64,000 nt of DNA from Candidatus Babeliales bacterium (GTDB lineage: Bacteria; Babelota; Babeliae; Babelales; JANWKD01): assembly GCA_963762115.1 (NCBI GenBank), contig CAVXJH010000003.1:399493-463492 (forward strand), read 5' to 3'. Shown here piece after piece: positions 15,515 through 60,252 of this stretch. A model generated the notes under the pieces. It had not been told where the DNA came from. It saw only the letters and a program-made list of their open reading frames with translations, and made no database searches. The number at the start of each line of letters is the position of its first letter. Positions within the stretch are counted from its first letter, which is position 1. A program made the position numbers and the translations under genes.

Positions 15515-17131
15515 TTGAAAAAGCACTATAAAAAATATACCTGCAACCTCTTCATGGTCATTTTTCTAATAATAAGCATATTTTCAACACATGGCATGGA
15601 AGAACTAACTTCAAATAAAACCATTGAGGATTATTATGGCAACCTTTTTACGGGAGACGCTTCAACACTAGAAAAATGCGGCGATTTTTTTCAAACCATT
15701 AGTGATTTTGAAAATGACTCTGATAATGTTTCATTACTCCAAAGTATGAGACATCAAATAGTTCATGCATCTCCTGATGAAAAAACCATCGAAGACTATC
15801 ATGGCATCATTTTTACCGCGCCCGCTTCAACAATAGAAAAATGTGGCTTATTTCAAAACATTGGTGAATTTGAAGATGATTTTGATTTTAAGTCACCAGA
15901 TATTTGGAATCAATTATTTAGTAGAAGATTTCCTAAACGTGATATCAGTTTTTTTAAAGCAACGGCTGCTGACATACCTCTTTCAAAAGAAATTTTAAAA
16001 GCTGCCTTTGAATGCATCACACCTTTTTTTGAAAAAGCTGAATCCCCTGAAGACAAAAGAGAAAAAAGTGAAAAAATTCACGCTATGCTCGAGTCAATTT
16101 CAAAAGATCAGATGCGATCAATTTTTTCTGTCATTAATTATCTTGGCCCCCAAAAAGAAAAAGTAGCTAAAAAACTTGCTCAACAAATGAAAGCGATAAT
16201 TCCATCAAATGAATTAAAAGAAGAAAATGAAATTGATTTTATCATTTTATCGAAGCTATATGACAAATCTATAGGTACAATTATCAAAAAAAAAGAAGAA
16301 ACGGCATATTTCGATTCGCTAAAGCCTAAAGAACTTAATTTCCAAAAAATGAATATCGAATCCCTGCAAGGTATCGAACATATTAAAATTGATAAAAATA
16401 ACATTAGTACGTTACGTCTTAGTAACAATAAATTAACAACCTTAAATATTAAAAATCTTTTAGAAATATTTCCCAACCTTAAACATATCGATGCTGAGCA
16501 TAATCTAATTACAAAGGCTATTTTCCCTGAACAATTACCTGCCAATATAAAAATATTTTTGTATCAAAATTTTATTAAGGAACTAATGCCTTTTTATACA
16601 AATGATAAGAATAAAATAGACTTAAGAAATAATCCTTTATCTGCCGATGCTCATGAAAACATTAAAAAAGCCTTAATTCCACCGTTTTTTAAAAGAAACC
16701 GACATCATTTATATTTTTTTAAAGAAGCCTCTAAATCATTTTTATTTAATAGTTTAACTGGCGCAGGAATATCTACATGCTTTATTTGGGCACCTATAGG
16801 AATTATTCGATCTTACAAATCTGAATATCCGGCCCCAAATACAATTACACAATCTATACTTTTCCATATATTGTTAGGCACAGTAAGCCCATCGTTTTAC
16901 CTCTTTTTAAAAACAGAACAGCTTTTGGGATTCGGAAATTCACCTTCATCAGCACATAAACATTTTTTACAATTTGTTGATAAATATGCTCTTGCAAGCA
17001 GCTTAATTATAGGAACTACATCTATTGCTTGGAAACTTTATAAAAATGAATTAACTGAATACAAAAAACACAAATACGTTCCAACAGCAAAGATTTTTAC
17101 TGGTGACTTCGATGAAAGTGCAGGCATATGA
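15515..17131 (+). CDS. Exported Skp1/BTB-like + LRR + TM protein (paralog 1)
   Basis: Signal then GMEE; LRRs LRLSNNKLTTL, IDAEHNLIT, IDLRNNPLS; C-terminal hydrophobic helices; start may be ATG 15554. Confidence 0.75.
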   Translation: MKKHYKKYTCNLFMVIFLIISIFSTHGMEELTSNKTIEDYYGNLFTGDASTLEKCGDFFQTISDFENDSDNVSLLQSMRHQIVHASPDEKTIEDYHGIIFTAPASTIEKCGLFQNIGEFEDDFDFKSPDIWNQLFSRRFPKRDISFFKATAADIPLSKEILKAAFECITPFFEKAESPEDKREKSEKIHAMLESISKDQMRSIFSVINYLGPQKEKVAKKLAQQMKAIIPSNELKEENEIDFIILSKLYDKSIGTIIKKKEETAYFDSLKPKELNFQKMNIESLQGIEHIKIDKNNISTLRLSNNKLTTLNIKNLLEIFPNLKHIDAEHNLITKAIFPEQLPANIKIFLYQNFIKELMPFYTNDKNKIDLRNNPLSADAHENIKKALIPPFFKRNRHHLYFFKEASKSFLFNSLTGAGISTCFIWAPIGIIRSYKSEYPAPNTITQSILFHILLGTVSPSFYLFLKTEQLLGFGNSPSSAHKHFLQFVDKYALASSLIIGTTSIAWKLYKNELTEYKKHKYVPTAKIFTGDFDESAGI

Positions 17132-18567
17132 ATAAAAAAATTAGAATACTTCATTTTTTGATTCTAGTTTTTGCTTTAGCAAATATTTCGTTCTTACAAA
17201 GCATGAGACATCAAATAGTTCATGCATCTCCTGATGAAAAAATTATCGAAGATTATCATGGCACCATTTTTACCGTGCCTGCTTCAACAATAGAAAAGTG
17301 TGGTGGATTTTTTCAAACCCTTGCTGATTTTGATACCTTTTATTTTGAAACATCAGATATTTGGGATCAATTATTTAGTAGAAGATTTCCTAAAAGCGAT
17401 ATCAGTTTTTTTCAAACGAAGGCAGCAGATACCCCTCTTTCAAAAGAAATTTTAAAAGCTACCTTTGAATGCATCACACCATTTTTTGAAGAAGTTAAAT
17501 TACCTGAAGAAAAAAGTGAAAAAATTAAAGCGATAATCGAATCAATTGATAAGGATCACATTCGATCAATTTTTTCTGTAATAAATTATCTTGGCCCCCA
17601 AAAAGAAAAAGTAGCTAAAAAATTAGCTCAACGAATGAAAGCGATAATTCCATACGATGAATTAAAAGAAGATAATGAAATTGATGTTATTGTTTTATCG
17701 GGAATATATGATAAAACAATACAAAAACTCCTTAAAAGGAAAAATCAATGGGGATTTTATAACCAACGGGTAGCCCAAGCTTTAGAGCTTAAAGGAATGA
17801 AGCTTGACAACTTGAAAGGAATTGAAAAGATAACAATTGAAAGTGTTAGGCTATTATATCTTAACGATAATGCATTAAGAACACTTGATATTGCGTATCT
17901 AAAAAAAAAATTTCCAAAACTTACTTACATCAATGCAAGCAATAACTGCATTACCACTCTCATTCTTCCCTCTAAATTACAAGAGCGTTTAACCATCGAA
18001 CTTAAAAACAATTTAATTAAAGAACTGCCTACCTTTTCATTAGATGGTGATTGTACAATTAACCTAAAAGGTAATCCTTTATCAGAAGATGCCCATAAAA
18101 AAATTAGAAAAGCATTAACACCACCATTTTTTATAAAAAATAGGCATCATTTAATTTTTTGGGCAAATAACGCAGGATATTTAATACGCGGAGTATTCTT
18201 TGGTGGACTCATTGGAATGCCATTAGGAACATCACTAGCAACTCTCTATTATTGCCCACGTACAACAATAATAGCAGGTATAGCACTTGGCTTGAGCGCA
18301 TCCACTTCATCAACAATAGCCCAAGCCATTCCTTATTTTATGATTGCTCCTTACCTGGCAATAAGGCTTAATCTTGACCCTGAGTTTTCAAATCATTGTA
18401 CTGGCTTTGTACCATTTGTTCATAAATTTACTTTAGGAAGCAGTTTGGCCTTAGGATTTATTTCACTCATAAGTGAAACGAAAAATATTGCACGAGACTA
18501 TGAACGAAATAAATACATTCAACGAGCAAAAATTTTCACTGATGCCGATGATTCTGCAAAAAATTAA
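17128..18567 (+). CDS. Exported Skp1/BTB-like + LRR + TM protein (paralog 2)
   Basis: Tandem paralog of 15515; LYLNDNALRTL, INASNNCIT, INLKGNPLS. Confidence 0.75.
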   Translation: MNKKIRILHFLILVFALANISFLQSMRHQIVHASPDEKIIEDYHGTIFTVPASTIEKCGGFFQTLADFDTFYFETSDIWDQLFSRRFPKSDISFFQTKAADTPLSKEILKATFECITPFFEEVKLPEEKSEKIKAIIESIDKDHIRSIFSVINYLGPQKEKVAKKLAQRMKAIIPYDELKEDNEIDVIVLSGIYDKTIQKLLKRKNQWGFYNQRVAQALELKGMKLDNLKGIEKITIESVRLLYLNDNALRTLDIAYLKKKFPKLTYINASNNCITTLILPSKLQERLTIELKNNLIKELPTFSLDGDCTINLKGNPLSEDAHKKIRKALTPPFFIKNRHHLIFWANNAGYLIRGVFFGGLIGMPLGTSLATLYYCPRTTIIAGIALGLSASTSSTIAQAIPYFMIAPYLAIRLNLDPEFSNHCTGFVPFVHKFTLGSSLALGFISLISETKNIARDYERNKYIQRAKIFTDADDSAKN

Positions 18568-22120: not shown

Positions 22121-22562
22121 CTTAACATTTTAAGGAAATACGATGAATATTCAAAAAAACACTTTTATGTGGGCACTATTGATAGCTAACTTACTCTTTA
22201 ATATGCCAACTTTACTTAAAGCAGACATGCAAAACACTGAAGAAGCATTAAATAGCTTTGAAGAAACCTTGAACGCAGGCCACGAACAAACAAAATGCAT
22301 AATGGAGTGTTTTTATAAACATCAAAAAGAATCAGATAAAATGGAATGTACAATGTGTTCACAAGAATGTGAAATGGCATATTTAAAAAAAATTATAGCA
22401 ATTCAGAGAAAAAAAAATGAAGCTCTTCAGCAAAATAAATCTGATAAATCTAACTAACTTAACGTTTTAAGGAAATACGATGAATATTCAAAAAAACACT
22501 TTTATGTGGGCATTATTGGTAGCTAACTTGCTCTTTAATATGCCAACTTTACTTAAAGCAGA
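22121..22562 (+). repeat. 105-bp direct repeat (22121-22225 / 22458-22562) covering RBS + signal peptide
   Basis: 4 mismatches; identity stops at the predicted cleavage site. Confidence 0.9.
22143..22457 (+). CDS. Small exported protein with twin CX3C motifs (paralog 1)
   Basis: Signal peptide ...LLKA; CIMEC and CSQEC. Confidence 0.75.
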   Translation: MNIQKNTFMWALLIANLLFNMPTLLKADMQNTEEALNSFEETLNAGHEQTKCIMECFYKHQKESDKMECTMCSQECEMAYLKKIIAIQRKKNEALQQNKSDKSN

Positions 22563-22815
22563 AAATAAAGAAACAAAAGAATATGATGAGCTACACAGTT
22601 CACTTGAAGCATTAAAAAATGATATAAAGGCATGTAAAGATGTTTCAGGGGAACTAGAACTTGTACTGAGTGCACACTTAGAAAAAGCATTTTGCAATCT
22701 TGAATGCGCATCTAAAAAACAAGATAAAACAATATGCCAGAACAAATGTGAAGTTGAACATTTAAGAAAAATTGTACATTTTTGGCAAAATAAAGTTAAT
22801 AATTCTAACAAATAA
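22480..22815 (+). CDS. Small exported protein with twin CX3C motifs (paralog 2)
   Basis: Near-identical signal peptide; CNLEC and CQNKC. Confidence 0.75.
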   Translation: MNIQKNTFMWALLVANLLFNMPTLLKAENKETKEYDELHSSLEALKNDIKACKDVSGELELVLSAHLEKAFCNLECASKKQDKTICQNKCEVEHLRKIVHFWQNKVNNSNK

Positions 22816-23282: not shown

Positions 23283-24744
23283 CTACTCTTTACCCACATT
23301 TTTACTATAATTAACGAGATACAGAGTTAATATATCAAAAAAAGAAAAGTAAAAAATGATTAAAGAATTGTGGGCAGCAAATGAGACTAATCGTATGTCA
23401 TTAAAAGATAAACGCAGAAATGAAAGAGTTAGAATACTTCTAGAGGCCGTTGCCGATAGCCCATCAGCAAGCATTTTACAAGCTTGCAACGGAGAAAATG
23501 CACAAGCAAAAGGTGCTTATCGTTTTCTTGCCACAACAGAAATTGATGAACAAGATATTCTCGAAGGACATTATCAAGCAACCGTCGAAAGAGCTGAAAA
23601 TGCTGATGGAAAAGTCATTATTGTTAGCGATGGCATGGATGCATCTTTTAAAAATCTTAAAAAAACTTCAGGGTTAGGAACTCTATCTAATACAAAAAGT
23701 TCACTTGGAATAAAAGTTCAAAATACGTATGTATTTAGTGAAAATTTTATTCCATTAGGGCTAATAAATCAAAAGTATTGGATACGCAATAAAGAAGATT
23801 TTGGCAAAAAAAAACATAAGCTAAGGTTGCCTACAAAGGAAAAAGAATCTTATAATTGGATTGAATCAATTTATCAAATAGAAAAAAAGCTTCCTATAAA
23901 TAAAAGCTATTTATTTATAGGTGATGGTGGTGCCGATATTTATGATTTATTAACAGCAGAAAGGCGTGTAAATAGCGATTTACTCATTCATCTTGTGCAA
24001 AATAGAAATATACAGAACGAAGAAGAGCGTCTCTTTGAATTGCTGGAAAAACAATCAGTATTAGGCGTTATAACGAAAGAATTAGAACGTACAAAAACTC
24101 ATTCTAAGAGAACTGCAAAGTTAGCGATTAGAGTCAAAGAAGTCGAAATTTGTTCTCCTTTAAATCGAAAAAATGAAAAATTACCAACCATACATTTAAC
24201 AGCGATTTATGTGCAAGAAATAGAATATGACAACTCAGTAAATGATCCAATAGTATGGCGACTTATTACTACGATTAAAGTTCAATCATTGGAAGAAGCT
24301 GAAAAGCTTATTGCCCTTTACTCAAAACGTTGGCTCATTGAACGCTATCATTATATTTTAAAAGAAGGTTGTCGCATAGAAAAATTTCAAATGGAATCGG
24401 TTGATAACCTAAAAAGAACCTTGGCTGTTTACTCAATTGCTGCCTGGCGTTTAATTTATATCACTTATCTTGCAAGAATTAAACCTGATGCCCCATGTAA
24501 TTTAATTCTTACAACCGATGAAGCTGATGCGTTATATTGCACGCATCATAAAACTCTTACATTGCCCCCCAAATCTTTTTCTGTTAAAGAAGCAACTCAA
24601 ATGATAGCAAAATTAGGAGGTTTTCTTGGCAGGAAAAACGATAAAGATCCTGGTGCAAAAGTTTTGTGGCAGGGATTATTTCGGCTAGAAGCCATTACAC
24701 AAGCTTATCTTTTATTTAAAGAACTAAATGTGGGTAAAGAGTAG
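23283..24744 (+). mobile_element. IS4-family (IS50/Tn5-like) insertion sequence, 1462 bp
   Basis: Terminal IRs CTACTCTTTACCCACATTT; flanking direct repeat CATATACGCG at 23273-23282 and 24745-24754. Confidence 0.95.
23356..24744 (+). CDS. IS4 family (Tn5-like) DDE transposase
   Basis: DKRRNER, AYRFL, YSKRWLIERYHYILK (YREK), LGGFLGRKNDKDPG; stop codon lies in the right IR. Confidence 0.95.
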   Translation: MIKELWAANETNRMSLKDKRRNERVRILLEAVADSPSASILQACNGENAQAKGAYRFLATTEIDEQDILEGHYQATVERAENADGKVIIVSDGMDASFKNLKKTSGLGTLSNTKSSLGIKVQNTYVFSENFIPLGLINQKYWIRNKEDFGKKKHKLRLPTKEKESYNWIESIYQIEKKLPINKSYLFIGDGGADIYDLLTAERRVNSDLLIHLVQNRNIQNEEERLFELLEKQSVLGVITKELERTKTHSKRTAKLAIRVKEVEICSPLNRKNEKLPTIHLTAIYVQEIEYDNSVNDPIVWRLITTIKVQSLEEAEKLIALYSKRWLIERYHYILKEGCRIEKFQMESVDNLKRTLAVYSIAAWRLIYITYLARIKPDAPCNLILTTDEADALYCTHHKTLTLPPKSFSVKEATQMIAKLGGFLGRKNDKDPGAKVLWQGLFRLEAITQAYLLFKELNVGKE

Positions 24745-25098: not shown

Positions 25099-28115
<3,017 letters not shown>

Positions 28116-28248: not shown

Positions 28249-29208
28249 ATGAAATCACTATTTCTTAAAGGTTTAAACCTGTTATTTGCAGTTGCACTCT
28301 TTGCAACAATAAATACATATGCAATGGAACAACAAGAAGAAGTTGCAGAGCCTATTTCTGCTCAAGCGCAAACTGATAATGTTATTGAACGTATGTATAA
28401 TGCTTTTAGCAAACAACTTGATGAAAGATTTCCAGAAGCACCTACAAATTTTTATGAAGCAATTGTACGCCTTCAAAGCATTGCAAAATTACTTGAAAAA
28501 TCTGAGATTGAACTCTGTGAAAATTTCAACGCTACACAAGAAAGTTGTATAATAAATGGCATTGAACAACCATATCATATGCTTCATCCAATTTTTAAAC
28601 ATTGGTTTCAAAGCGCTTGCAACAAAACTCTTCTTGAACATACAAAATCTATTGAAGCAATTGATCTAATATTTGATTTATTAAGTAAAATAACAACAGA
28701 GAACAATATCGAAAATTACAAAAAAGCAATTGAATCTTTGCCCCATGTTATTGCTGAATATATCAAAGAAGAATTTATTGAAATGCATGGCTGGAAATAT
28801 AAAAATAAAGGCTGGCTGACTGACTTTAAACCTCAAATGACTTTTGATGATAATGAAAACATGATAAATGTCGAATTTATTAAAGATAATTATCATGTTC
28901 GTGGATATTATTTGAAAGCAATCGATCAACCAATAATCGTTGTAATTAATTTAAATAATGGAACATATCCCTATATGGCGTTTAACGCTCATGCAACATT
29001 ACCACCAATGCTTTCAGACCTTTTGAACAATTTTTTTCATATTCCATTACCAGAAAGCGGTGTTTACCCTCCACTTTGGGAAAAACCAACATTTGAACAA
29101 TCATTAAAAAATTGTATCCAAGAAAACGCTAAAACATTAATAGGAAAAATAAAAAGACAAATCCAATCAACATTTTATTCTTTTAGCGAATTTATGGATC
29201 GATTTTAA
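28249..29208 (+). CDS. Exported array protein 1
   Basis: Signal + AMEQ; family domain PTNFYEAIVRLQSIA...PYHMLHPIFKHWF. Confidence 0.8.
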   Translation: MKSLFLKGLNLLFAVALFATINTYAMEQQEEVAEPISAQAQTDNVIERMYNAFSKQLDERFPEAPTNFYEAIVRLQSIAKLLEKSEIELCENFNATQESCIINGIEQPYHMLHPIFKHWFQSACNKTLLEHTKSIEAIDLIFDLLSKITTENNIENYKKAIESLPHVIAEYIKEEFIEMHGWKYKNKGWLTDFKPQMTFDDNENMINVEFIKDNYHVRGYYLKAIDQPIIVVINLNNGTYPYMAFNAHATLPPMLSDLLNNFFHIPLPESGVYPPLWEKPTFEQSLKNCIQENAKTLIGKIKRQIQSTFYSFSEFMDRF

Positions 29209-29263
29209 TGAAACATAATAAAAAAACTCTTATTTTTTAATTAGAACGTAGAGGAATATGTAT

Positions 29264-30220
29264 ATGAAATCACTATTTTTTAAAAGGTTAACACCTTTAT
29301 TACTCACCGTTACACTCTTTGCAGCAATAAATATACAAGCAATGGAACAAGAAGAAGGACAAGAACCTTTTTCTGCTCAAGAACAAAGCGCCAATGCCGA
29401 TAATGTTGTTGAACGTATATATAATGCTTTTAGCAAACAACTTGACGAAAGATTCACAGAATCACCTACAAATTTTCGCGAAGCAATTGCACAACTCAGA
29501 TGTATTGCACGATTACTTGAAGAATCTGAAGTTGAACTTCTTGAAGATTTCAACGTTACACAAGAAAACTGCACAATACATGGTATTAAACAACCATATC
29601 ATATGCTTCATCCAATTTTTAAACATTGGTTCAAAAATGCTTACGAAAAAATCCTTCTTGAACATCCAAAAGTTATTGAAGCTGCTGATGTAATTCTTGA
29701 AAGATTAAGTGAAAATGTTTCTCATGAAAATATGAATAATTATGATAAAGCAATTACAAATCTGCCAAAAATTGTTACTGAATGCATCCAAGATCAATTC
29801 ATTGATATACATGGTTGGCCACACAATATAAAACCCTCAATCACATTCAATGATTCGGGAGTAAAGCACATTTCATTTCTTCAAGATAATTATGTTTTTG
29901 AAGGATTTGGAACTGGTTGGATACATAAAACACGGTCACAACAAAGTCATTTAGAAAATATCAATAATAATCCTTCAGCATGGCTTAGCCGCAGCTCTAC
30001 ATTGGTTGATGGAAAATTAGCAACAGGAATTGCATACGAATTAGGATTAGCTGAAGAAATAAACGGAGATATTAAACCATTAAAAGCCTCTAATGATAAA
30101 GAAGAACCAAGTGGTGTATTACCACCTCTTTGGGAAAAACCAACATTTAAAGAAGCTCTTAAAAAACGAGCTGAAGAAAATAAATTAAAGAAAAATAGAA
30201 ATAGATGTATTATAAGTTAA
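29264..30220 (+). CDS. Exported array protein 2, C-terminal CaaX (CIIS)
   Basis: Paralog of 28249; ends KLKKNRNRCIIS. Confidence 0.8.
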   Translation: MKSLFFKRLTPLLLTVTLFAAINIQAMEQEEGQEPFSAQEQSANADNVVERIYNAFSKQLDERFTESPTNFREAIAQLRCIARLLEESEVELLEDFNVTQENCTIHGIKQPYHMLHPIFKHWFKNAYEKILLEHPKVIEAADVILERLSENVSHENMNNYDKAITNLPKIVTECIQDQFIDIHGWPHNIKPSITFNDSGVKHISFLQDNYVFEGFGTGWIHKTRSQQSHLENINNNPSAWLSRSSTLVDGKLATGIAYELGLAEEINGDIKPLKASNDKEEPSGVLPPLWEKPTFKEALKKRAEENKLKKNRNRCIIS

Positions 30221-30263
30221 AATCCATCTAGCATTTTTTAATCATATAGAAGGGACAATTTTT

Positions 30264-32132
30264 ATGAAATTATATATTAAACAGGGCAAAAAGGCCTTAT
30301 TACTTTCTCTCGTATTATTTACCGGAATCACACTCAATGCAATGGAACAACAAGATAAGCCTGAATATAGTTCTTTCGTTGATAATCTAGAGATAGTACT
30401 AAAAAGAAATAACAAACAACTCTGCGCAAAGCTTCTTCATCATTTCAATGAAGAAATTGAACAAAAAGAAGTAATTGAACAAGTTTCTATAGTTGCAAAT
30501 TTAATACCATATGCTGCACAAAAAAGTAATCAAGTAACCTCTGTACTTTGCAATGCACTGGTAAAAATTGTCCAGGCTAACGACTCATTAGCCTCAATAA
30601 TTAAAGAAAAGATAAATCCTGTTATTCACACTTTAGTAGCACACCAAAGAAAAAAGGCTTTAAAAAAACTTCTTTGTATATTTGCTGATAACACTGAATC
30701 GGAAGAATATACAAGGATTAATCAAATTATACAAAGTAAGTTACAAAAAGGATTAACCGTATTTAATCCAGAAGAAAATTCTACCACAAAAGAAGCACTA
30801 AAATATATTTATTCTACTATTGATTTGATACAAGAATCGATATCAAACCCACAACGCACAGTAATATTCTGCAATATGTTGCTAGGTCATTTTATTAGCC
30901 AAGAAAAAAATTTCAGAACAGACATGCAAAAAATTATTTCTCCAATCATTCATCCTCTAATTCAAGCTAATAACATTGAAGCATTAAAACAAATTCGATA
31001 TATTTTCTCTGATTTTAAAGATAAAGATACACAAGAATACAAAATCATACATAAAGCAATTAAAAAATATAATTCAGTAATAAAATCCAAGCAAAATGAA
31101 CAGCTTGCAAAATTATCAGAAAAAAGTCCTCATGAAAAAGTTGCAACTGAAGATAACGATCAAGAATTAAACTTTGCTCGCACTGTTAGTACAAGGGAAA
31201 CTACCAATCCAAGTGCGACTACTTTTGAAAATCCAATTGATTTTATGAGATTACAAAAGGAATCTGCTGAACTTACTGGTGTTCCGCTCTCAGATGAAGA
31301 AGCTGATGCATTTTTGATTAGAATTTTAGAAGAACACATCGACAATCACCCTTCTTGCAAGAAAATACCAAAAACATTTTATGAAGCTTTAGTGCGTCTT
31401 CAATGCATTGCTCGTTTGTTTGATAAAACTCGCTTTTATATAGGTGATATGGAAATTACAGAGAATGATTGTGTGATTAATAACTTAGTTCTTCCTCATC
31501 ATATGACAAATAAAAGATTTAAACAGTGTTTTGATATTGTCAAAAATCGAACCGTACTTCTTTCCCATGAAAAATCTGTTGAAGCAATAAATATCATTCT
31601 TGAAAGCATCAGTAAAAAAGTAAAACCAGAAACGGCAGCCGAATATATAAAAGCAATTAATTGTTTACCCTCTTTTTTTTCTCATAACATTAAAAAGCAA
31701 TTTAATAGAATGATGTATCAAGAATTATATAATATTCCTTTGATAACAACGGGTTTAAATTTTATTGGTTCGTTTGTTAATTATGACATAGTAAAAACCA
31801 AAATTAAACCTTATGAAGTTATCTTCGATGAAGAAGACAGGATAACATCATTCAAATTTAAAAAATCTGGAATTAACGTTGAAATATCTAACATACATTG
31901 GATAGGACAGGATCCTTGGGGTAAAGCAGTTATGGGAAGTGAAACATGTTATGGTACTGATCTAAACAATTTACACACTCTTCTAAATAGAAAATTTGAG
32001 GGACGAGCAACATATTTTGATGAAAACGACTTTATTTGGCGACTAAATTTTGAAGAAATGTTACAAAAACGTGCTCATGAAAATGAAAACAAGACACAAG
32101 AAAAGCAACAATCAAAATGCATTATAAGTTAG
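30264..32132 (+). CDS. Exported array protein 3, mosaic, C-terminal CaaX (CIIS)
   Basis: Two helical repeats shared with protein 4, plus the PKTFYEALVRLQCIA domain shared with proteins 1 and 2; ends QSKCIIS. Confidence 0.8.
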   Translation: MKLYIKQGKKALLLSLVLFTGITLNAMEQQDKPEYSSFVDNLEIVLKRNNKQLCAKLLHHFNEEIEQKEVIEQVSIVANLIPYAAQKSNQVTSVLCNALVKIVQANDSLASIIKEKINPVIHTLVAHQRKKALKKLLCIFADNTESEEYTRINQIIQSKLQKGLTVFNPEENSTTKEALKYIYSTIDLIQESISNPQRTVIFCNMLLGHFISQEKNFRTDMQKIISPIIHPLIQANNIEALKQIRYIFSDFKDKDTQEYKIIHKAIKKYNSVIKSKQNEQLAKLSEKSPHEKVATEDNDQELNFARTVSTRETTNPSATTFENPIDFMRLQKESAELTGVPLSDEEADAFLIRILEEHIDNHPSCKKIPKTFYEALVRLQCIARLFDKTRFYIGDMEITENDCVINNLVLPHHMTNKRFKQCFDIVKNRTVLLSHEKSVEAINIILESISKKVKPETAAEYIKAINCLPSFFSHNIKKQFNRMMYQELYNIPLITTGLNFIGSFVNYDIVKTKIKPYEVIFDEEDRITSFKFKKSGINVEISNIHWIGQDPWGKAVMGSETCYGTDLNNLHTLLNRKFEGRATYFDENDFIWRLNFEEMLQKRAHENENKTQEKQQSKCIIS

Positions 32133-32170
32133 AATATATATTTTTTAAACCATATAGAAGGGACAATTCT

Positions 32171-33007
32171 ATGAAATTATTTATAAAACAAGGTAAAAAC
32201 ACCTTATTACTTTCTCTCGTATTATTTACCGGAATCACGCTTCAGGCAATGGAACAACAAGGGAGCGAATACGGCTATTTAGTTGATACTCTTGATGCAG
32301 CAATGAAATCATCAAATCCCACTGCTTGCAAAGATCTTTTCGAAAGCTTTAGTAATGATCTTAACCAAAAAGATCCAATCGAACGAGCTGCTATTGTTGT
32401 TGGCTTAACACAAGAAGCAGCAGCGAAAAAAAATGAACAATTAACAGGGGTATTTTGCAATGCACTCGTTAGTATTTATAACACTAGCCCCGGAATAACA
32501 GAAGCAATGCAAGAAATAATAAGCCCTGTCATTCGTCCTTTGGCAGAGCACAAACAAATATCAGCATTGGGAAAAATTCACTGTATTTTTTCTAACAATA
32601 TTGAAAGCGAAGAATATAGACAAATTGATGAAGCAATTAAAAATAAATTGCACGGTAATACAACAGTAAATACTGATGAAGATGAAGCAATTGCAAGATT
32701 ATTACAAGAAGAAGTTCAAAGTCCTGATGACAATTTTGCACCTAAAGATAACGATCTCAACAGGGCACTAGCATTAAGTTTACAAACAGGCAGACAAGAT
32801 GACGAACAAGCAGAATTAGAAAAAGCACTGCGTGCAAGCAGATTTACCAACCCTAGCGCACCCGTACTAACAGACATCGAAGAAGATGATGCAGTATTAC
32901 GTATTGCACTCGCAGAAAGCTTACAAGTAAACACACCAAATACCAACTCAAATCCAAGCATCTGGAACAATCTCCGCAACATATTTTTAGACGGCTTTGG
33001 TAGTTAA
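32171..33007 (+). CDS. Exported array protein 4 with tandem ubiquitin-interacting motifs
   Basis: Start at ATG 32171 by homology with 30264; DLNRALALSL, ELEKALRASR, VLRIALAESL. Confidence 0.8.
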   Translation: MKLFIKQGKNTLLLSLVLFTGITLQAMEQQGSEYGYLVDTLDAAMKSSNPTACKDLFESFSNDLNQKDPIERAAIVVGLTQEAAAKKNEQLTGVFCNALVSIYNTSPGITEAMQEIISPVIRPLAEHKQISALGKIHCIFSNNIESEEYRQIDEAIKNKLHGNTTVNTDEDEAIARLLQEEVQSPDDNFAPKDNDLNRALALSLQTGRQDDEQAELEKALRASRFTNPSAPVLTDIEEDDAVLRIALAESLQVNTPNTNSNPSIWNNLRNIFLDGFGS

Positions 33008-54208: not shown

Positions 54209-55390
54209 TTAACAGATAACACGAACAACTTCTTCCAAGCTAATTATGCCGGCTTGTAGTTTTTCTCGTGCATCATGCAATAAAGGCTGCAAACCATCAG
54301 CAAGTGCCTGTTCTTGAATCGCCTCAAAAAGAGGATTGCGCACAATAAGTGTACGTAACGCGTTACTCATAATTAACAATTCAAAAATACCAATGCGCCC
54401 TTTATACCCAAGATTAAAACAGTGTGAACAGCCAAGACCTTTATAGAGTTTTTGCATATTCACCGCCAATCGTTCTAGTATTTTTAATTCTTGCTCATTT
54501 GGTTCTTGTTCAACACGACAATGTGTACAAATCTTGCGCACTAAACGTTGGGCAAGAACACCTGTCAATGAACTATTAATCAAGAATGGTTCAATGGCCA
54601 TATCCATTAAGCGCATAATGGTAGATGATGCATCATTGGTATGCAATGTGCTTAACACCAAGTGACCAGTTAGCGATGCTTCAATAGCAATACGCGCTGT
54701 TTGCTTATCACGAATTTCACCAATCATGGCAATATCAGGATCTTGTCGCAATAATGCGCGAATACCTCGTTCAAAAGTAAATCCTGCTTCAGGATGAATT
54801 TGGCCCTGCGTTATACCATCAATGTTATATTCAACAGGATCTTCTAGCGTGATAATATTTTTTTCAGCAGAATGTAATGCTGATAGCGTTGCATATAAGG
54901 TAGTCGTTTTTCCTGAACCGGTTGGCCCCGTTACTAAAAAAAATCCCTGCGCGCGAGCAATAAGATTTTTAAATTGTTCTAATATTTTTGGTTGTAACCC
55001 TAATTTTTCTAAAACAATAGTGTGATTTGTGCGATCCAAAATTCTAATAACTATTTTTTCGCCATAAATTGCAGGAAAGGTGGAAACGCGCAAATCAACC
55101 GATTTATCAGCAAGTTGTATGCGAAATTTTCCATCCTGAGGAATTCTTTTTTCTGCAATGTTGTTGTGAGCAAGAATCTTAATGCGCGAAATCACTTGTG
55201 CCGCACTCATTGCTTCTATCATGGGCTGATCATAAAGAGTACCATCAATGCGATAGCGAACCCTCAATCCCTTTTGCGTTGATTCTAAATGAATATCAGA
55301 TGCATCACGTTCAATTGCTAACGCAATAATATCATTAACACGATCAATAATTGATAAGGCAATAAAAGCTTGATTTTCGCGCTCCAACAT
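54209..55390 (-). CDS. GspE/PilB-family secretion/pilus ATPase lacking the N1 domain
   Basis: ASDIH, PQDG, TGPTGSGKTTT, EDPVE, LRQDPD, TGHLVLSTLH, tetra-Cys zinc site. Confidence 0.92.
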   Translation of the reverse strand: MLERENQAFIALSIIDRVNDIIALAIERDASDIHLESTQKGLRVRYRIDGTLYDQPMIEAMSAAQVISRIKILAHNNIAEKRIPQDGKFRIQLADKSVDLRVSTFPAIYGEKIVIRILDRTNHTIVLEKLGLQPKILEQFKNLIARAQGFFLVTGPTGSGKTTTLYATLSALHSAEKNIITLEDPVEYNIDGITQGQIHPEAGFTFERGIRALLRQDPDIAMIGEIRDKQTARIAIEASLTGHLVLSTLHTNDASSTIMRLMDMAIEPFLINSSLTGVLAQRLVRKICTHCRVEQEPNEQELKILERLAVNMQKLYKGLGCSHCFNLGYKGRIGIFELLIMSNALRTLIVRNPLFEAIQEQALADGLQPLLHDAREKLQAGIISLEEVVRVIC

Positions 55391-55398
55391 ACTCTTTT

Positions 55399-55950
55399 TT
55401 ACTCTTCTTCTTTATCAAGCTCTATTTCTTCTTGCGCCAGAGCTCGTGCTTCATCGCGCTCTTCTGCTTCAATATAATCAAAATCATCAGTCACTTGTAA
55501 AGAAGGATCATAAAATTCTTCTACCGTTTCTATAATATCTTCACCAATACCAACCATAAATTGAATATCGGACGACATATAATTACCAATATTAGGCAAC
55601 AATGAATCATCTTGCGGATCGGCAGCAACAACGACAAGCATGTTGTCATTCAATTCTTGCAAAGGAATAATTTCATTGCGAAGCAAAAAATCGCGAGGAA
55701 ATTTAATAACCAATGAATGATCAAAAAAATGACCTATCACATCAAATGATGGCACATTATAATAGGCACTTAATGCTTTTAATAAATCTTCTTTTTCAAC
55801 AAGTTCTTCCTGCAATAAAAAATTATCAAATTCATCTTCCGATTCTGCTTTAAATAATCTTTTTGCATCCTTTGATTCTTGAGGAGTAAAAACCTTATTT
55901 TTTTCTAAGATTGTACAAAGTCCGTCGACAAATTTATCGCCTTTTCTCAT
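55399..55950 (-). CDS. Stand-alone GspE/PilB N-terminal (T2SSE_N/MshEN-like) domain protein
   Basis: LLKALSAYYNVPSFD, FPRDFLLRNEIIPL, LVVVAADP. Confidence 0.75.
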   Translation of the reverse strand: MRKGDKFVDGLCTILEKNKVFTPQESKDAKRLFKAESEDEFDNFLLQEELVEKEDLLKALSAYYNVPSFDVIGHFFDHSLVIKFPRDFLLRNEIIPLQELNDNMLVVVAADPQDDSLLPNIGNYMSSDIQFMVGIGEDIIETVEEFYDPSLQVTDDFDYIEAEERDEARALAQEEIELDKEEE

Positions 55951-55959
55951 GCTATTTTC

Positions 55960-56352
55960 CTATCCAACTTTATAACCAATCAAGAAACCTACACTCGCGC
56001 TCAAAACAATCGGAATATTATTTTTCATCCAATCTAAATAGGCATTACCAACTGTTTGAAAAGTATCCGACTGCTGTATTCCTACCATTGTTTTCAATTT
56101 TATCATATCTATCGTTATTATTTGAAACGTATTAAGAGCATAAAGCGCTATACAAGAAATCACTATACTCAAAAATAAATAACGCATACACTTTTTGAAA
56201 AAAAAGCCAAAGAAAAAACCCGCACAAAGATATACCATTAAATTCATGACGCCGTTAAATGATAAATCAAATGATTTGATGAATTTTTCCAAATCAAAGG
56301 TAGATTTTATATGTTCAACCCAGCTTGTTTGCGCTTGTGTTTTGCTTAACAT
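55960..56352 (-). CDS. FUN14-like membrane protein
   Basis: GFFFGFFFKK, LYALNTFQIITIDM, GFLIGYK. Confidence 0.6.
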   Translation of the reverse strand: MLSKTQAQTSWVEHIKSTFDLEKFIKSFDLSFNGVMNLMVYLCAGFFFGFFFKKCMRYLFLSIVISCIALYALNTFQIITIDMIKLKTMVGIQQSDTFQTVGNAYLDWMKNNIPIVLSASVGFLIGYKVG

Positions 56353-58483: not shown

Positions 58484-59356
58484 TTAATAAACCCATTGAA
58501 AAAACCTACTCCAACGAACACGTTGCCAAAAATCAATTGGATGTTTGATTAAATCAAGAATCCACCATGATTCATGGCTATCAATTGACCACAAGCGCAC
58601 AATAATTTTGCCATGAATCAATTTACCGTCAAGTGGTCCCCAAAAACGCGAATCATAGCTTCCCAACCGATTATCACCCATCGCCCAATATTGATTTGAA
58701 TCCAACGTGATATCAAAAATATCAACATTCCTACCATATTGATCAAAGGAGGGAGTTTGAGGTAACCGTAACCAATCTTGATCATATGTCTTTGACCAAC
58801 GCTTCCCAAGCTCAACGTCATACTCATCCATTCGATAAAAAGGCTGATCATTAAATGAAAAATTTTCATCGTAGGAAGAATGCAATAGGCATTTATTATT
58901 ATAAACAGCAATAAGAGGATATTTATTTAAATAAGGTTCATCTAATTTTTCCCCATTACGATAAATAACCGGCTTTCCATCTTCAATTACTCCTTTAATA
59001 TGATCACCAGGAAGACCAATCACTCGTTTAGTCCAATTAGAAGGTCCCCAAACATAACGTTGAAAAACGTCCGTAAAATAGTTATGAGAATAATTAAAAT
59101 TGGGATCATTAAAAGTAATAATATCGCCATACTTGATTGGTCGAAATAAATATGAAAATTTATCAGCAAAAAAACGTTCACCAACTAACATGGTTGTTTC
59201 CATTGAACCCGTTGGCACTTGATACAGACCATAAAAATAAGTGCGAATAAAAAAGGCAATTGGCACAATAATAAGAAAAGATTCTATATATTGAGCAATT
59301 TTTGATTTATGAGGACGTTTAAGCCAAACACGAAACTTATTAATAAATTCTAACAT
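58484..59356 (-). CDS. lepB: Signal peptidase I (paralog 2)
   Basis: VPTGSM (Ser), TKRVIGLPGD (Lys), MGDNR..SYDSRFWG. Confidence 0.93.
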   Translation of the reverse strand: MLEFINKFRVWLKRPHKSKIAQYIESFLIIVPIAFFIRTYFYGLYQVPTGSMETTMLVGERFFADKFSYLFRPIKYGDIITFNDPNFNYSHNYFTDVFQRYVWGPSNWTKRVIGLPGDHIKGVIEDGKPVIYRNGEKLDEPYLNKYPLIAVYNNKCLLHSSYDENFSFNDQPFYRMDEYDVELGKRWSKTYDQDWLRLPQTPSFDQYGRNVDIFDITLDSNQYWAMGDNRLGSYDSRFWGPLDGKLIHGKIIVRLWSIDSHESWWILDLIKHPIDFWQRVRWSRFFQWVY

Positions 59357-59379: not shown

Positions 59380-60252
59380 TCAAGATACTCTTTGAAGAAA
59401 CCGATTCCATCGAATACGTTTCCAAAAATCAAGGGGATGTTTGATCAAATCAAAAATAAGCCATGATTCATTGCTATCAATTGACCATATTCTAAAGACA
59501 ATCTTTCCATGTATCAATTTACCATCAAATGGACCAAGAAATCGTGAATCTTTGCTTCCCAGTCGATTATCACCCATACACCAATATTGATTTGGCGCCA
59601 AGTGAACATCAAAAATATCAACATTTCTTCCATAGTGATCAAACGAAGGCGTTCCCGGCATTAATAACCATTCTTGGCCATACATATCTGACCAACGTTT
59701 TCCTAATTCCGCCTCATAGTCATTAAAACTATAAAATGGTTGATCACTATATGAATAAGCTGGGTCATAAGAACGTGGCGCTTGGATGCGATTATTTTTA
59801 TATAACGTAATAAGAGGAAATTTGTTTAAATATGGTTCATCTAATTTTACATCATTGCGATATACAACCGGTTTTCCATCTTCAATAACGCCTCTAATAT
59901 GATCACCTGGAATACCAATAACACGCTTTGTCCAATTAGTAGGACCCCATACATAGCGCTGAAACAAATCAACCCAATAATTATCAGAATATATAAAAGT
60001 AGGATCATTAAGAGCAATAATATCGCCATGCTTTATTGGTATAAATAAGGGCGTAAATTTATCTGAAAAAAAACCCTCCCCAACCAATATCGTTGTTTCC
60101 ATTGAACCCGTCGGTACTTTATAAAGTCCATAACCAACCGTTCTAATAAGAAATGCAATCGGCAAAATAATAATGAAGGTTTCAAGATATTCTGCAACGA
60201 TAGATTTATTCGGTCGTTTTCGCCATTGATGAAATTTTTGAACGAGTGTCAT
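59380..60252 (-). CDS. lepB: Signal peptidase I (paralog 1)
   Basis: VPTGSM, TKRVIGIPGD, MGDNR..SKDSRFLG. Confidence 0.93.
   Translation of the reverse strand: MTLVQKFHQWRKRPNKSIVAEYLETFIIILPIAFLIRTVGYGLYKVPTGSMETTILVGEGFFSDKFTPLFIPIKHGDIIALNDPTFIYSDNYWVDLFQRYVWGPTNWTKRVIGIPGDHIRGVIEDGKPVVYRNDVKLDEPYLNKFPLITLYKNNRIQAPRSYDPAYSYSDQPFYSFNDYEAELGKRWSDMYGQEWLLMPGTPSFDHYGRNVDIFDVHLAPNQYWCMGDNRLGSKDSRFLGPFDGKLIHGKIVFRIWSIDSNESWLIFDLIKHPLDFWKRIRWNRFLQRVS

Follow-up and report, generated by a model that had tools for sequence, protein, structure and literature searches.

Why should two neighbouring bacterial proteins, each with an apparent signal peptide for export, end in the same four residues by which eukaryotic proteins are marked for prenylation? 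The question is raised by a stretch of 64,000 nucleotides from a Candidatus Babeliales bacterium (contig CAVXJH010000003.1), referred to below as the window. Two adjacent open reading frames (ORFs) in it, here called B and C, both terminate in the CaaX box CIIS, that is, a cysteine at position -4, two aliphatic residues (the second being a2) and a final residue X. On balance we think it probable that B and C are Sec-exported, effector-like proteins of an intracellular bacterium, which mimic a eukaryotic CaaX box and are farnesylated by the host. The initial annotation of the window had pointed to the two CIIS ends at 30206-30220 and 32118-32132, and its coordinates, reading frames and translations were confirmed. 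Positions 30182-30220 translate as KLKKNRNRCIIS followed by a stop, and form the C-terminus of B (ORF 29258-30220, + strand, 320 amino acids), which reads ...KLKKNRNR-CIIS. Positions 32094-32132 translate as TQEKQQSKCIIS followed by a stop, and form the C-terminus of C (ORF 30264-32132, + strand, 622 amino acids), which reads ...QQSK-CIIS. The elements of the two ends are the following.

30182-30205, + strand: polybasic linker KLKKNRNR of B, adjoining the CaaX box
30206-30217, + strand: CaaX box CIIS of B, encoded by TGT ATT ATA AGT and followed by the stop codon TAA at 30218-30220
32118-32129, + strand: CaaX box CIIS of C, encoded by TGC ATT ATA AGT and followed by the stop codon TAG at 32130-32132

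Over the CIIS codons and the stop, the DNA of B and C is the same at 13 of 15 bases, the differences being the third base of the cysteine codon (TGT or TGC) and the stop codon (TAA or TAG). The earlier remark that different codons encode the same peptide is thus right about the peptide, but the difference amounts to just one synonymous codon change, plus the stop codon. In the 60 bases upstream of the box, 25 match. The match between the two ends is therefore not explained by a recent gene conversion of the whole gene end.

In K-Ras4B, a basic cluster upstream of the farnesylated CaaX box provides a second membrane signal. B is like K-Ras4B in having such a cluster directly upstream of the box, although a shorter one: five of the eight residues preceding the cysteine are lysine or arginine, and residues -14 to -5 carry a net charge of +4, as they likewise do in the homolog P0004. 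C (...EKQQSK) has no polybasic stretch, and in C and the other members the net charge is 0 to +2. The K-Ras-like stretch described previously is thus present in B, but it was given too much weight, being absent from C and found only in B and P0004; it is a feature of one sub-branch and not a family-wide trait.

CIIS is the native CaaX box of Saccharomyces cerevisiae Ras2, which is described as fully modified, i.e. farnesylated, proteolysed and methylated (PMC9927470). In Table 3 of PMC10320760, Ras2 CIIS is entered as observed +, 100% prenylated, with an RRS EF of 9.01 and a PrePS score of 1.281, the latter belonging to Ras2 with its own upstream linker. As the two yeast screens are presented in that source, the top hits of both lack D, E, G, K and R at a2, and those of the Ras-based screen also lack H at a2 and K at X; the Ydj1-based screen is said there to give canonical, cleaved motifs scores that are too low. 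On literature grounds only, the CIIS of B and C is an accepted motif of eukaryotic farnesyltransferase (FTase). This bears out the proposal that a CIIS-type tail is an FTase substrate, the four residues being those of the validated yeast Ras2 box (PMC9927470, PMC10320760).

B and C lie in the middle of a cluster of four tandem paralogs on the same strand, A to D, situated between gyrB (25111-27549) and tilS (33100-34107). In the list, a slash marks the predicted signal peptidase cut.

28249-29208, + strand: paralog A, 319 amino acids; signal peptide (A/MEQQ), family domain, no CaaX box, tail ...LIGKIKRQIQSTFYSFSEFMDRF; its database copy is P0003
29258-30220, + strand: paralog B, 320 amino acids; signal peptide at about 29258-29341 (...NIQA/MEQEE), family domain, C-terminal helix, polybasic linker, CIIS
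30264-32132, + strand: paralog C, 622 amino acids; signal peptide at 30264-30341 (...TLNA/MEQQ), helical N-domain, family domain from about 31230, polar linker, CIIS
32171-33007, + strand: paralog D, 278 amino acids from an ATG preceded by a Shine-Dalgarno sequence; signal peptide, one copy of the N-domain, three motifs resembling ubiquitin-interacting motifs (UIMs), no CaaX box (...FLDGFGS)

The database copy of B, P0001, starts at the third codon of B. A and B are alike along their full length, which constitutes the family domain, and the same domain makes up the C-terminal half of C, where the family profile matches residues 325-622. The N-terminal half of C is an all-helical domain that is internally duplicated, and occurs as a single copy in D. 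The tail of A is longer than the CaaX tails and has a helical hydrophobic moment of 0.59, compared to 0.13-0.40 in the CaaX-bearing tails. A longer tail with hydrophobic residues at the same place is found in the members A, P0012 and P0015, all without a CaaX box, and is suggestive, but no more than suggestive, of an alternative membrane-binding end. We note that a Tn5/IS4-type transposase with DNA-binding, DDE and dimerisation domains is encoded at 23356-24744 (+ strand), just upstream of gyrB and the paralog cluster.

Of 1463 candidates in a word-indexed search with B as the query, four reached E<=0.01, including two from the window itself; C as the query added one further protein, P0006. 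When 1.84 billion cluster representatives were searched with a five-member profile, it retrieved 21 proteins at E<=1e-3 (17 at <=1e-10 and 13 at <=1e-30). Judged by these searches, the family is very small and lineage-restricted. Searches of Pfam and NCBIfam with A, B, C and 11 homologs did not rise over the noise level, and a profile search of PDB sequences produced a single match, at E = 0.47. The alignment shows a conserved helix, LWEKPTFExALxKRAxEN, followed by a linker that is variable in length and sequence, and then the CaaX box. Two homologs, P0018 (711 amino acids) and P0020 (528 amino acids), are fusions of the helical part of the family domain with WD40 propellers, P0018 having two copies of that part. 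At its end, P0018 retains a PTFE-like C-terminal helix together with CTIG, and on this evidence the helix-linker-CaaX end behaves as a portable module.

The structure of B was predicted using AlphaFold2 with an alignment of 16 sequences (predicted local distance difference test, pLDDT, 75.1; predicted template modelling score, pTM, 0.65). The model, of moderate confidence, consists of a helical half, a β-rich half, a C-terminal helix at residues 295-312 and a low-confidence tail. Foldseek searches with it found nothing at E<=0.001 in the PDB (best 0.18) or in BFVD (best 0.021), and there was no usable match in the ESM Atlas. The N-domain common to C and D was modelled as a generic helical repeat (pLDDT 71.4), whose best PDB match is a designed repeat protein at E = 0.015. 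The weak Foldseek matches included Skp1-F-box complexes (Skp1-Cdc4, β-TrCP), which, together with the WD40 fusions, had brought an F-box to mind; these matches are non-significant (E>=0.2, probability <=0.21), and none of the 15 proteins scanned has an F-box Pfam match at E<=1. The domain would represent a new protein family without a relative in Pfam, NCBIfam or the PDB, members of which could be recognised as host-directed from their sequence alone.

Is the cysteine under selection? We counted C-terminal ends in 23 family proteins, P0001-P0023, a set that includes the copies from the window. Cysteine stands at exactly -4 in 11 of the 23, in both clades of the family, although it makes up only 1.6% of family residues overall; the initial annotation had looked for its absence from homologs as evidence against the proposal, and this distribution does not refute it. 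Nine of the 11 ends are canonical. The endings are as follows.

CIIS: P0001, P0004, P0005
CIVS: P0002
CGIS: P0006
CIIC: P0008, P0009, P0011
CTIG: P0018
CLGK: P0010, P0021

The other 12 proteins have no cysteine at -4, and six of these are obvious fragments (P0013, P0014, P0017, P0019, P0022, P0023). Pairwise comparison of the nine canonical members (36 pairs) gives 68% identity for the last four residues and 20% for the ten that come before. The canonical pattern is C-[I/G/T]-[I/V]-[S/C/G], with I or V at a2 in 9/9 and S, C or G at X. The linker before the box is polar (K/Q/E/N/S/T) and has low confidence in the AlphaFold2 model.

Homologs that are 25-58% identical retain the cysteine at -4. 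According to a maximum-likelihood tree built quickly from 16 members, both supported subfamilies (SH-aLRT 99 and 95) contain CaaX bearers, another of which is the distant WD40 fusion P0018. The tree paths between CaaX bearers reach 2.7 changes per site, with the long branches flagged as unreliable. Despite this divergence the stop codon is kept exactly three codons past the cysteine, which points to selection on the box itself and is otherwise hard to explain.

We also looked for enrichment over the window as a whole, using ORFs of at least 100 amino acids: 60 in the window and, as controls, 1053 from 80 loci of other bacteria matched through GyrB. Cysteine is at -4 in 4/60 window ORFs and 12/1053 control ORFs (Fisher p = 0.0085, or 0.041 when B and C are counted once). 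Besides B and C, cysteine at -4 is found in a 241-residue ORFan with a signal peptide at 8903-9628 (- strand), ending CLKA, and in a class I S-adenosylmethionine methyltransferase at 48500-49375 (+ strand), which ends CRHY and has a signal peptide followed by Met-Glu. CLKA (a2 = K) and CRHY (a2 = H) were not counted as CaaX boxes, as these a2 residues are among those missing from the yeast-screen top hits (PMC10320760).

The N-termini of A to D are lysine-rich, then hydrophobic, and end in A/MEQ. In B and C the hydrophobic stretch is about 14 residues long and leads to A-x-A-like sites, IQA/ME and LNA/ME. Signal peptides and cleavage sites were judged by the -3/-1 rule for signal peptidase I, which fits all four paralogs; on these features, the description of B and C as Sec-exported was a fair reading of their N-termini. 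C and D have almost the same signal peptide. In each of A to D the first ATG is preceded, at a distance of 6-8 nt, by a Shine-Dalgarno-like AAGGGA or AGAGGA. The internal Met after the signal peptide was considered as the true start and rejected, the Shine-Dalgarno-like element being upstream of the first ATG, with none seen before the internal ATG of C.

The predicted cut leaves Met-Glu at the start of the mature protein, and this is not peculiar to the cluster. The motif [A/G/S/C]-M-E-[E/Q] following a signal peptide occurs in 7/34 of the signal-peptide-like ORFs in the window and 0/373 of those in the control loci (p = 1.5e-8), and every family homolog that possesses its N-terminus has the combination of signal peptide and ME. 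The bearers of the motif in the window are ORFans and UIM, WD40 and methyltransferase proteins, and are not recognisable periplasmic enzymes. A looser pattern, [A/G/C/T]-Met-Glu-(Glu/Gln/Leu/Asn), is found in these places.

15515-17131
27522-28115, - strand
28249-33007 (A to D)
38410-39933
43992-44492
46688-48466
48500-49375

Among the window ORFs scanned over the 64 kb there were no type III or type IV secretion components; the one secretion gene seen encodes a GspE/PilB-type ATPase, with its ATPase body at 54209-55390 (- strand, 393 amino acids). The N-terminal MshEN-domain piece of this ATPase appears as a separate ORF at 55399-55950 (- strand, 183 amino acids), after a gap of 8 nt; the split may be genuine, or due to a frameshift or an assembly error. 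The window also encodes two tandem paralogs of signal peptidase I (Peptidase_S26), of 290 amino acids each, at 58484-59356 and 59380-60252 (both - strand). This pair is worthy of note because there are so many proteins with signal peptides and because the residue after the predicted cut is unusual.

A further feature of the cluster that appears to be directed at eukaryotes is found in D. A UIM is a short helix in which hydrophobic-x-x-Ala-x-x-x-Ser comes after a run of acidic residues.

32732-32944, + strand: UIM region of D, residues about 188-258, with the motifs DNDLNRALALSLQ, EQAELEKALRASR and EEDDAVLRIALAESLQ

The three motifs, at residues 196, 216 and 243, have an acidic run and then hydrophobic-x-x-Ala-hydrophobic-x-x-Ser. 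Against Pfam, D scores 21.0 bits for UIM_2 (cut-off 21) and 20.5 bits for UIM (cut-off 21). The bare UIM pattern matches D four times (the fourth match, at residue 41, is in the N-domain), compared to a mean of 0.26 in shuffled sequences, and 0 of 5000 shuffles reach four. P0025, a homolog 58% identical to D, keeps all three UIM-like motifs. Putative UIMs on a protein whose signal peptide is near-identical to that of C would be a second eukaryote-directed feature, sensible only in a eukaryotic cytosol. The presence of this paralog suggests that the cluster acts on ubiquitin-marked host structures.

We can now set out how the reading that we favour would work. The Sec signal peptide, read from the sequence, would take the proteins to the periplasm, and the predicted cut by signal peptidase would leave Met-Glu as the mature N-terminus. 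From there they would pass to the host cytosol without an injection machine, through an apparatus resembling type II secretion or a type IV pilus, or in outer-membrane vesicles; this presupposes that the bacterium is located in, or exposed to, the host cytoplasm. Given the identity and conservation of the motif, host FTase would then modify the cysteine at -4, this enzyme being proposed because S or C at X favours it, and host Rce1 and ICMT would cleave off -IIS and methylate the C-terminus thus exposed, the same processing that yeast Ras2-CIIS undergoes. The lipid would finally anchor the family domain at the cytosolic face of host membranes. In B, the polybasic stretch and the lipid together would direct the protein to acidic membranes such as the plasma membrane, while C, lacking both a polybasic stretch and a second cysteine, would default to endomembranes.

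Several points weigh against this account. Delivery is its weak link: with regard to an N-terminal Sec signal peptide, the prenylated effectors injected by Dot/Icm are just the opposite of B and C. Export past the periplasm, prenylation and membrane anchoring are steps that we infer from the motif and its conservation, and the lifestyle of the producer is likewise read from indirect signs. The PrePS value of Ras2 is not transferable to B and C, since PrePS scores the upstream linker too. Six members that are not fragments have no cysteine at -4 (P0003, which is paralog A, and P0007, P0012, P0015, P0016 and P0020), and at least five gains or losses of CaaX are needed on the tree; the motif is therefore dispensable. 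The two CLGK ends (P0010, P0021) are probably not substrates, a2 = G and X = K being missing among the yeast-screen top hits in PMC10320760. The enrichment over the window is weak and comes from B and C alone, the strong evidence being that from the family. The family profile gave zero matches when run against one genome per species (185,579 species). Finally, a bacterial enzyme that acts on the tail may be encoded outside the 64-kb window, which is part of a contig of at least 586 kb.

This last point leads to a different use of the tail, in which the C-terminal cysteine serves the bacterial side after Sec export, as a lipid anchor or sorting tag, in a disulfide or in a metal site, and its likeness to CaaX is a coincidence. 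We regard this as unlikely, although it has a precedent. The signal peptide exposes the tail first in the periplasm, where there is no eukaryotic FTase, and PMC11980579 describes bacterial Sec-dependent tags with an invariant C-terminal cysteine that are thought to be lipidated, cut by a relative of Rce1 and passed on to type II secretion; a GspE-type ATPase is indeed encoded in the window. However, those MYXO-CTERM tags are described in the same source as tripartite, with a Cys motif, a transmembrane helix and an Arg-rich end, whereas here the cysteine is followed by three residues and no helix. Moreover, these residues obey the preferences of FTase (I or V at a2 in 9/9 canonical members; S, C or G at X), which an anchor cysteine or a disulfide would have no need to do. 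No CPBP protease or Lgt-like gene was found among the window ORFs scanned, which represent a small part of the genome, and the UIM paralog in the cluster would be left unexplained.

It is also conceivable that CIIS is a relic of common ancestry that does nothing today, and that the proteins are ordinary components of the periplasm or outer membrane. Inheritance would accommodate the facts that the tandem paralogs B and C have 13 of their last 15 bases in common, that the window enrichment becomes marginal (p = 0.041) when the two are taken as one, and that several members of the family have lost the motif. What makes us think it very unlikely is that the cysteine keeps its place at exactly -4 in members whose identity is only 25-50% and which are separated by more than 2 changes per site, the adjoining linkers varying in length and having diverged to 20% identity; aaX varies solely within the FTase-compatible set, and drift would not hold the stop three codons past the cysteine in nine divergent genes. 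We give equally little credence to an N-terminus that is an uncleaved signal anchor, or is bypassed, so that the proteins remain in or on the bacterium or the vacuole membrane and any prenylation is incidental, following lysis or vesicle release. Cleavage is deduced from the -3/-1 rule alone, and outer-membrane vesicles are reported early in infection for a Dependentiae parasite (PMC6561590). Yet the hydrophobic regions are short (about 12-15 residues) and every member possessing its N-terminus has A or G at -1, as is typical of cleaved signal peptides, and incidental prenylation would not select for retention of the motif. Host farnesylation of exported effectors thus remains the explanation that we prefer.

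The same observations can be taken further, though this extension strikes us as rather doubtful: the ME motif might mark a class of injection-free effectors that pass from the periplasm to the host cytosol, the CaaX tails being one visible part of a lineage-specific code. By analogy, the motif could serve as a host-targeting signal, in its logic like PEXEL or RxLR. Alternatively, Met-Glu could serve as an N-terminus of the NatB type that stabilises the mature protein in the host cytosol. If there were such a code, the C-terminus would select the host membrane by means of either a farnesyl group, alone or combined with a polybasic stretch, or an amphipathic helix.

The window as a whole has a GC content of 34%, and signal-peptide-like starts are found in 34/60 of its ORFs compared to 373/1053 control ORFs (p = 8.9e-4). 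Features that bear on the lifestyle of the bacterium include the following.

4184-6226, - strand: cPLA2-type lysophospholipase (PLA2_B, E = 9.5e-29) with a signal peptide
17128-18567, + strand: weak match to leucine-rich repeats (E = 2.7e-4)
38410-39933, + strand: WD40 propeller protein ending in QQPAQE repeats
55960-56352, - strand: FUN14-family protein

These indirect signs suggest that the producer is probably obligately host-associated and lives inside a protist. According to PMC6561590, 44% of the coding sequences of Chromulinavorax destructans (Dependentiae) have signal peptides, Sec is its export route and its putative effectors carry signal peptides; the bacterium is located in the cytoplasm of its host and releases vesicles early in infection. 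Many of its secreted ORFans and eukaryote-type repeat proteins are proposed to act on the host. The window resembles what is described for this organism in its high share of signal peptides, its secreted ORFans and its eukaryote-type repeat proteins.

Two further pairs of secreted genes were seen in the window. The tandem small ORFans at 22143-22457 and 22480-22815 (+ strand) have near-identical N-termini (MNIQKNTFMWALL...), and the tandem pair at 15515-17131 and 17128-18567 (+ strand) have similar N-terminal regions (IEDYYG and IEDYHG) and acidic ends (DESAGI and DDSAKN). This suggests that local duplication of secreted genes is frequent in the window. A signal-peptide protein at 42050-42592 (+ strand) has a mature part that opens with tandem AKLGYPTYT repeats.

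Among known systems, the C-terminus of yeast Ras2 (CCIIS) shares the identical CIIS box with B and C; Ras2 has in addition a GTPase domain and an upstream cysteine that can be palmitoylated, neither of which is present in B or C. Salmonella SifA is said to be a type III-delivered effector that is prenylated by the host. MYXO-CTERM tags resemble B and C in combining a Sec signal peptide with a conserved C-terminal cysteine, and are linked in PMC11980579 to a protease of the CaaX-protease family and to type II secretion.

The closest functional comparison is with Legionella. The CaaX boxes of the Pel proteins and AnkB are reported to be lipidated by host farnesyltransferase or geranylgeranyltransferase I, anchoring the proteins to host or vacuole membranes (PMC4322725); the initial annotation likewise states that Legionella effectors make use of host prenylation. 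CaaX is missing in some alleles of AnkB (as described in PMC4322725 and PMC5506055), much as the motif is variable in the family of B and C. The link to ubiquitin is an F-box in AnkB, and here would be the putative UIMs of D. The two systems differ in delivery: a type IV system injects the Pel proteins and AnkB, in which a Sec signal peptide is absent, whereas here such a peptide is present in every member that possesses its N-terminus, and a type IV system was not among what was seen in the window. There is no relationship of sequence or fold between Pel or AnkB and B or C, which have no F-box or ankyrin match in Pfam. The GyrB of the window is at most about 60% identical to its best 80 matches, which come from many phyla and include no Legionella. 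A literature search gave no report of CaaX or prenylation for Dependentiae (including Babela, Vermiphilus, TM6 and Chromulinavorax) among the matches listed, and on prenylated bacterial effectors, amoebae and symbionts the titles among the matches listed were all concerned with Legionella or with effectors generally. What appears to be new here is that a known trick, host prenylation, would be put to use by a protein family not described before, which has a Sec-dependent architecture and belongs to another lineage. If this is true, the trick arose independently in a deep-branching, uncultured lineage, and host prenylation acts on proteins exported by the general Sec pathway, having so far been known for injected effectors. 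It would then provide a handle on how Dependentiae-like parasites, apparently without injection systems, place proteins on the membranes of their hosts.

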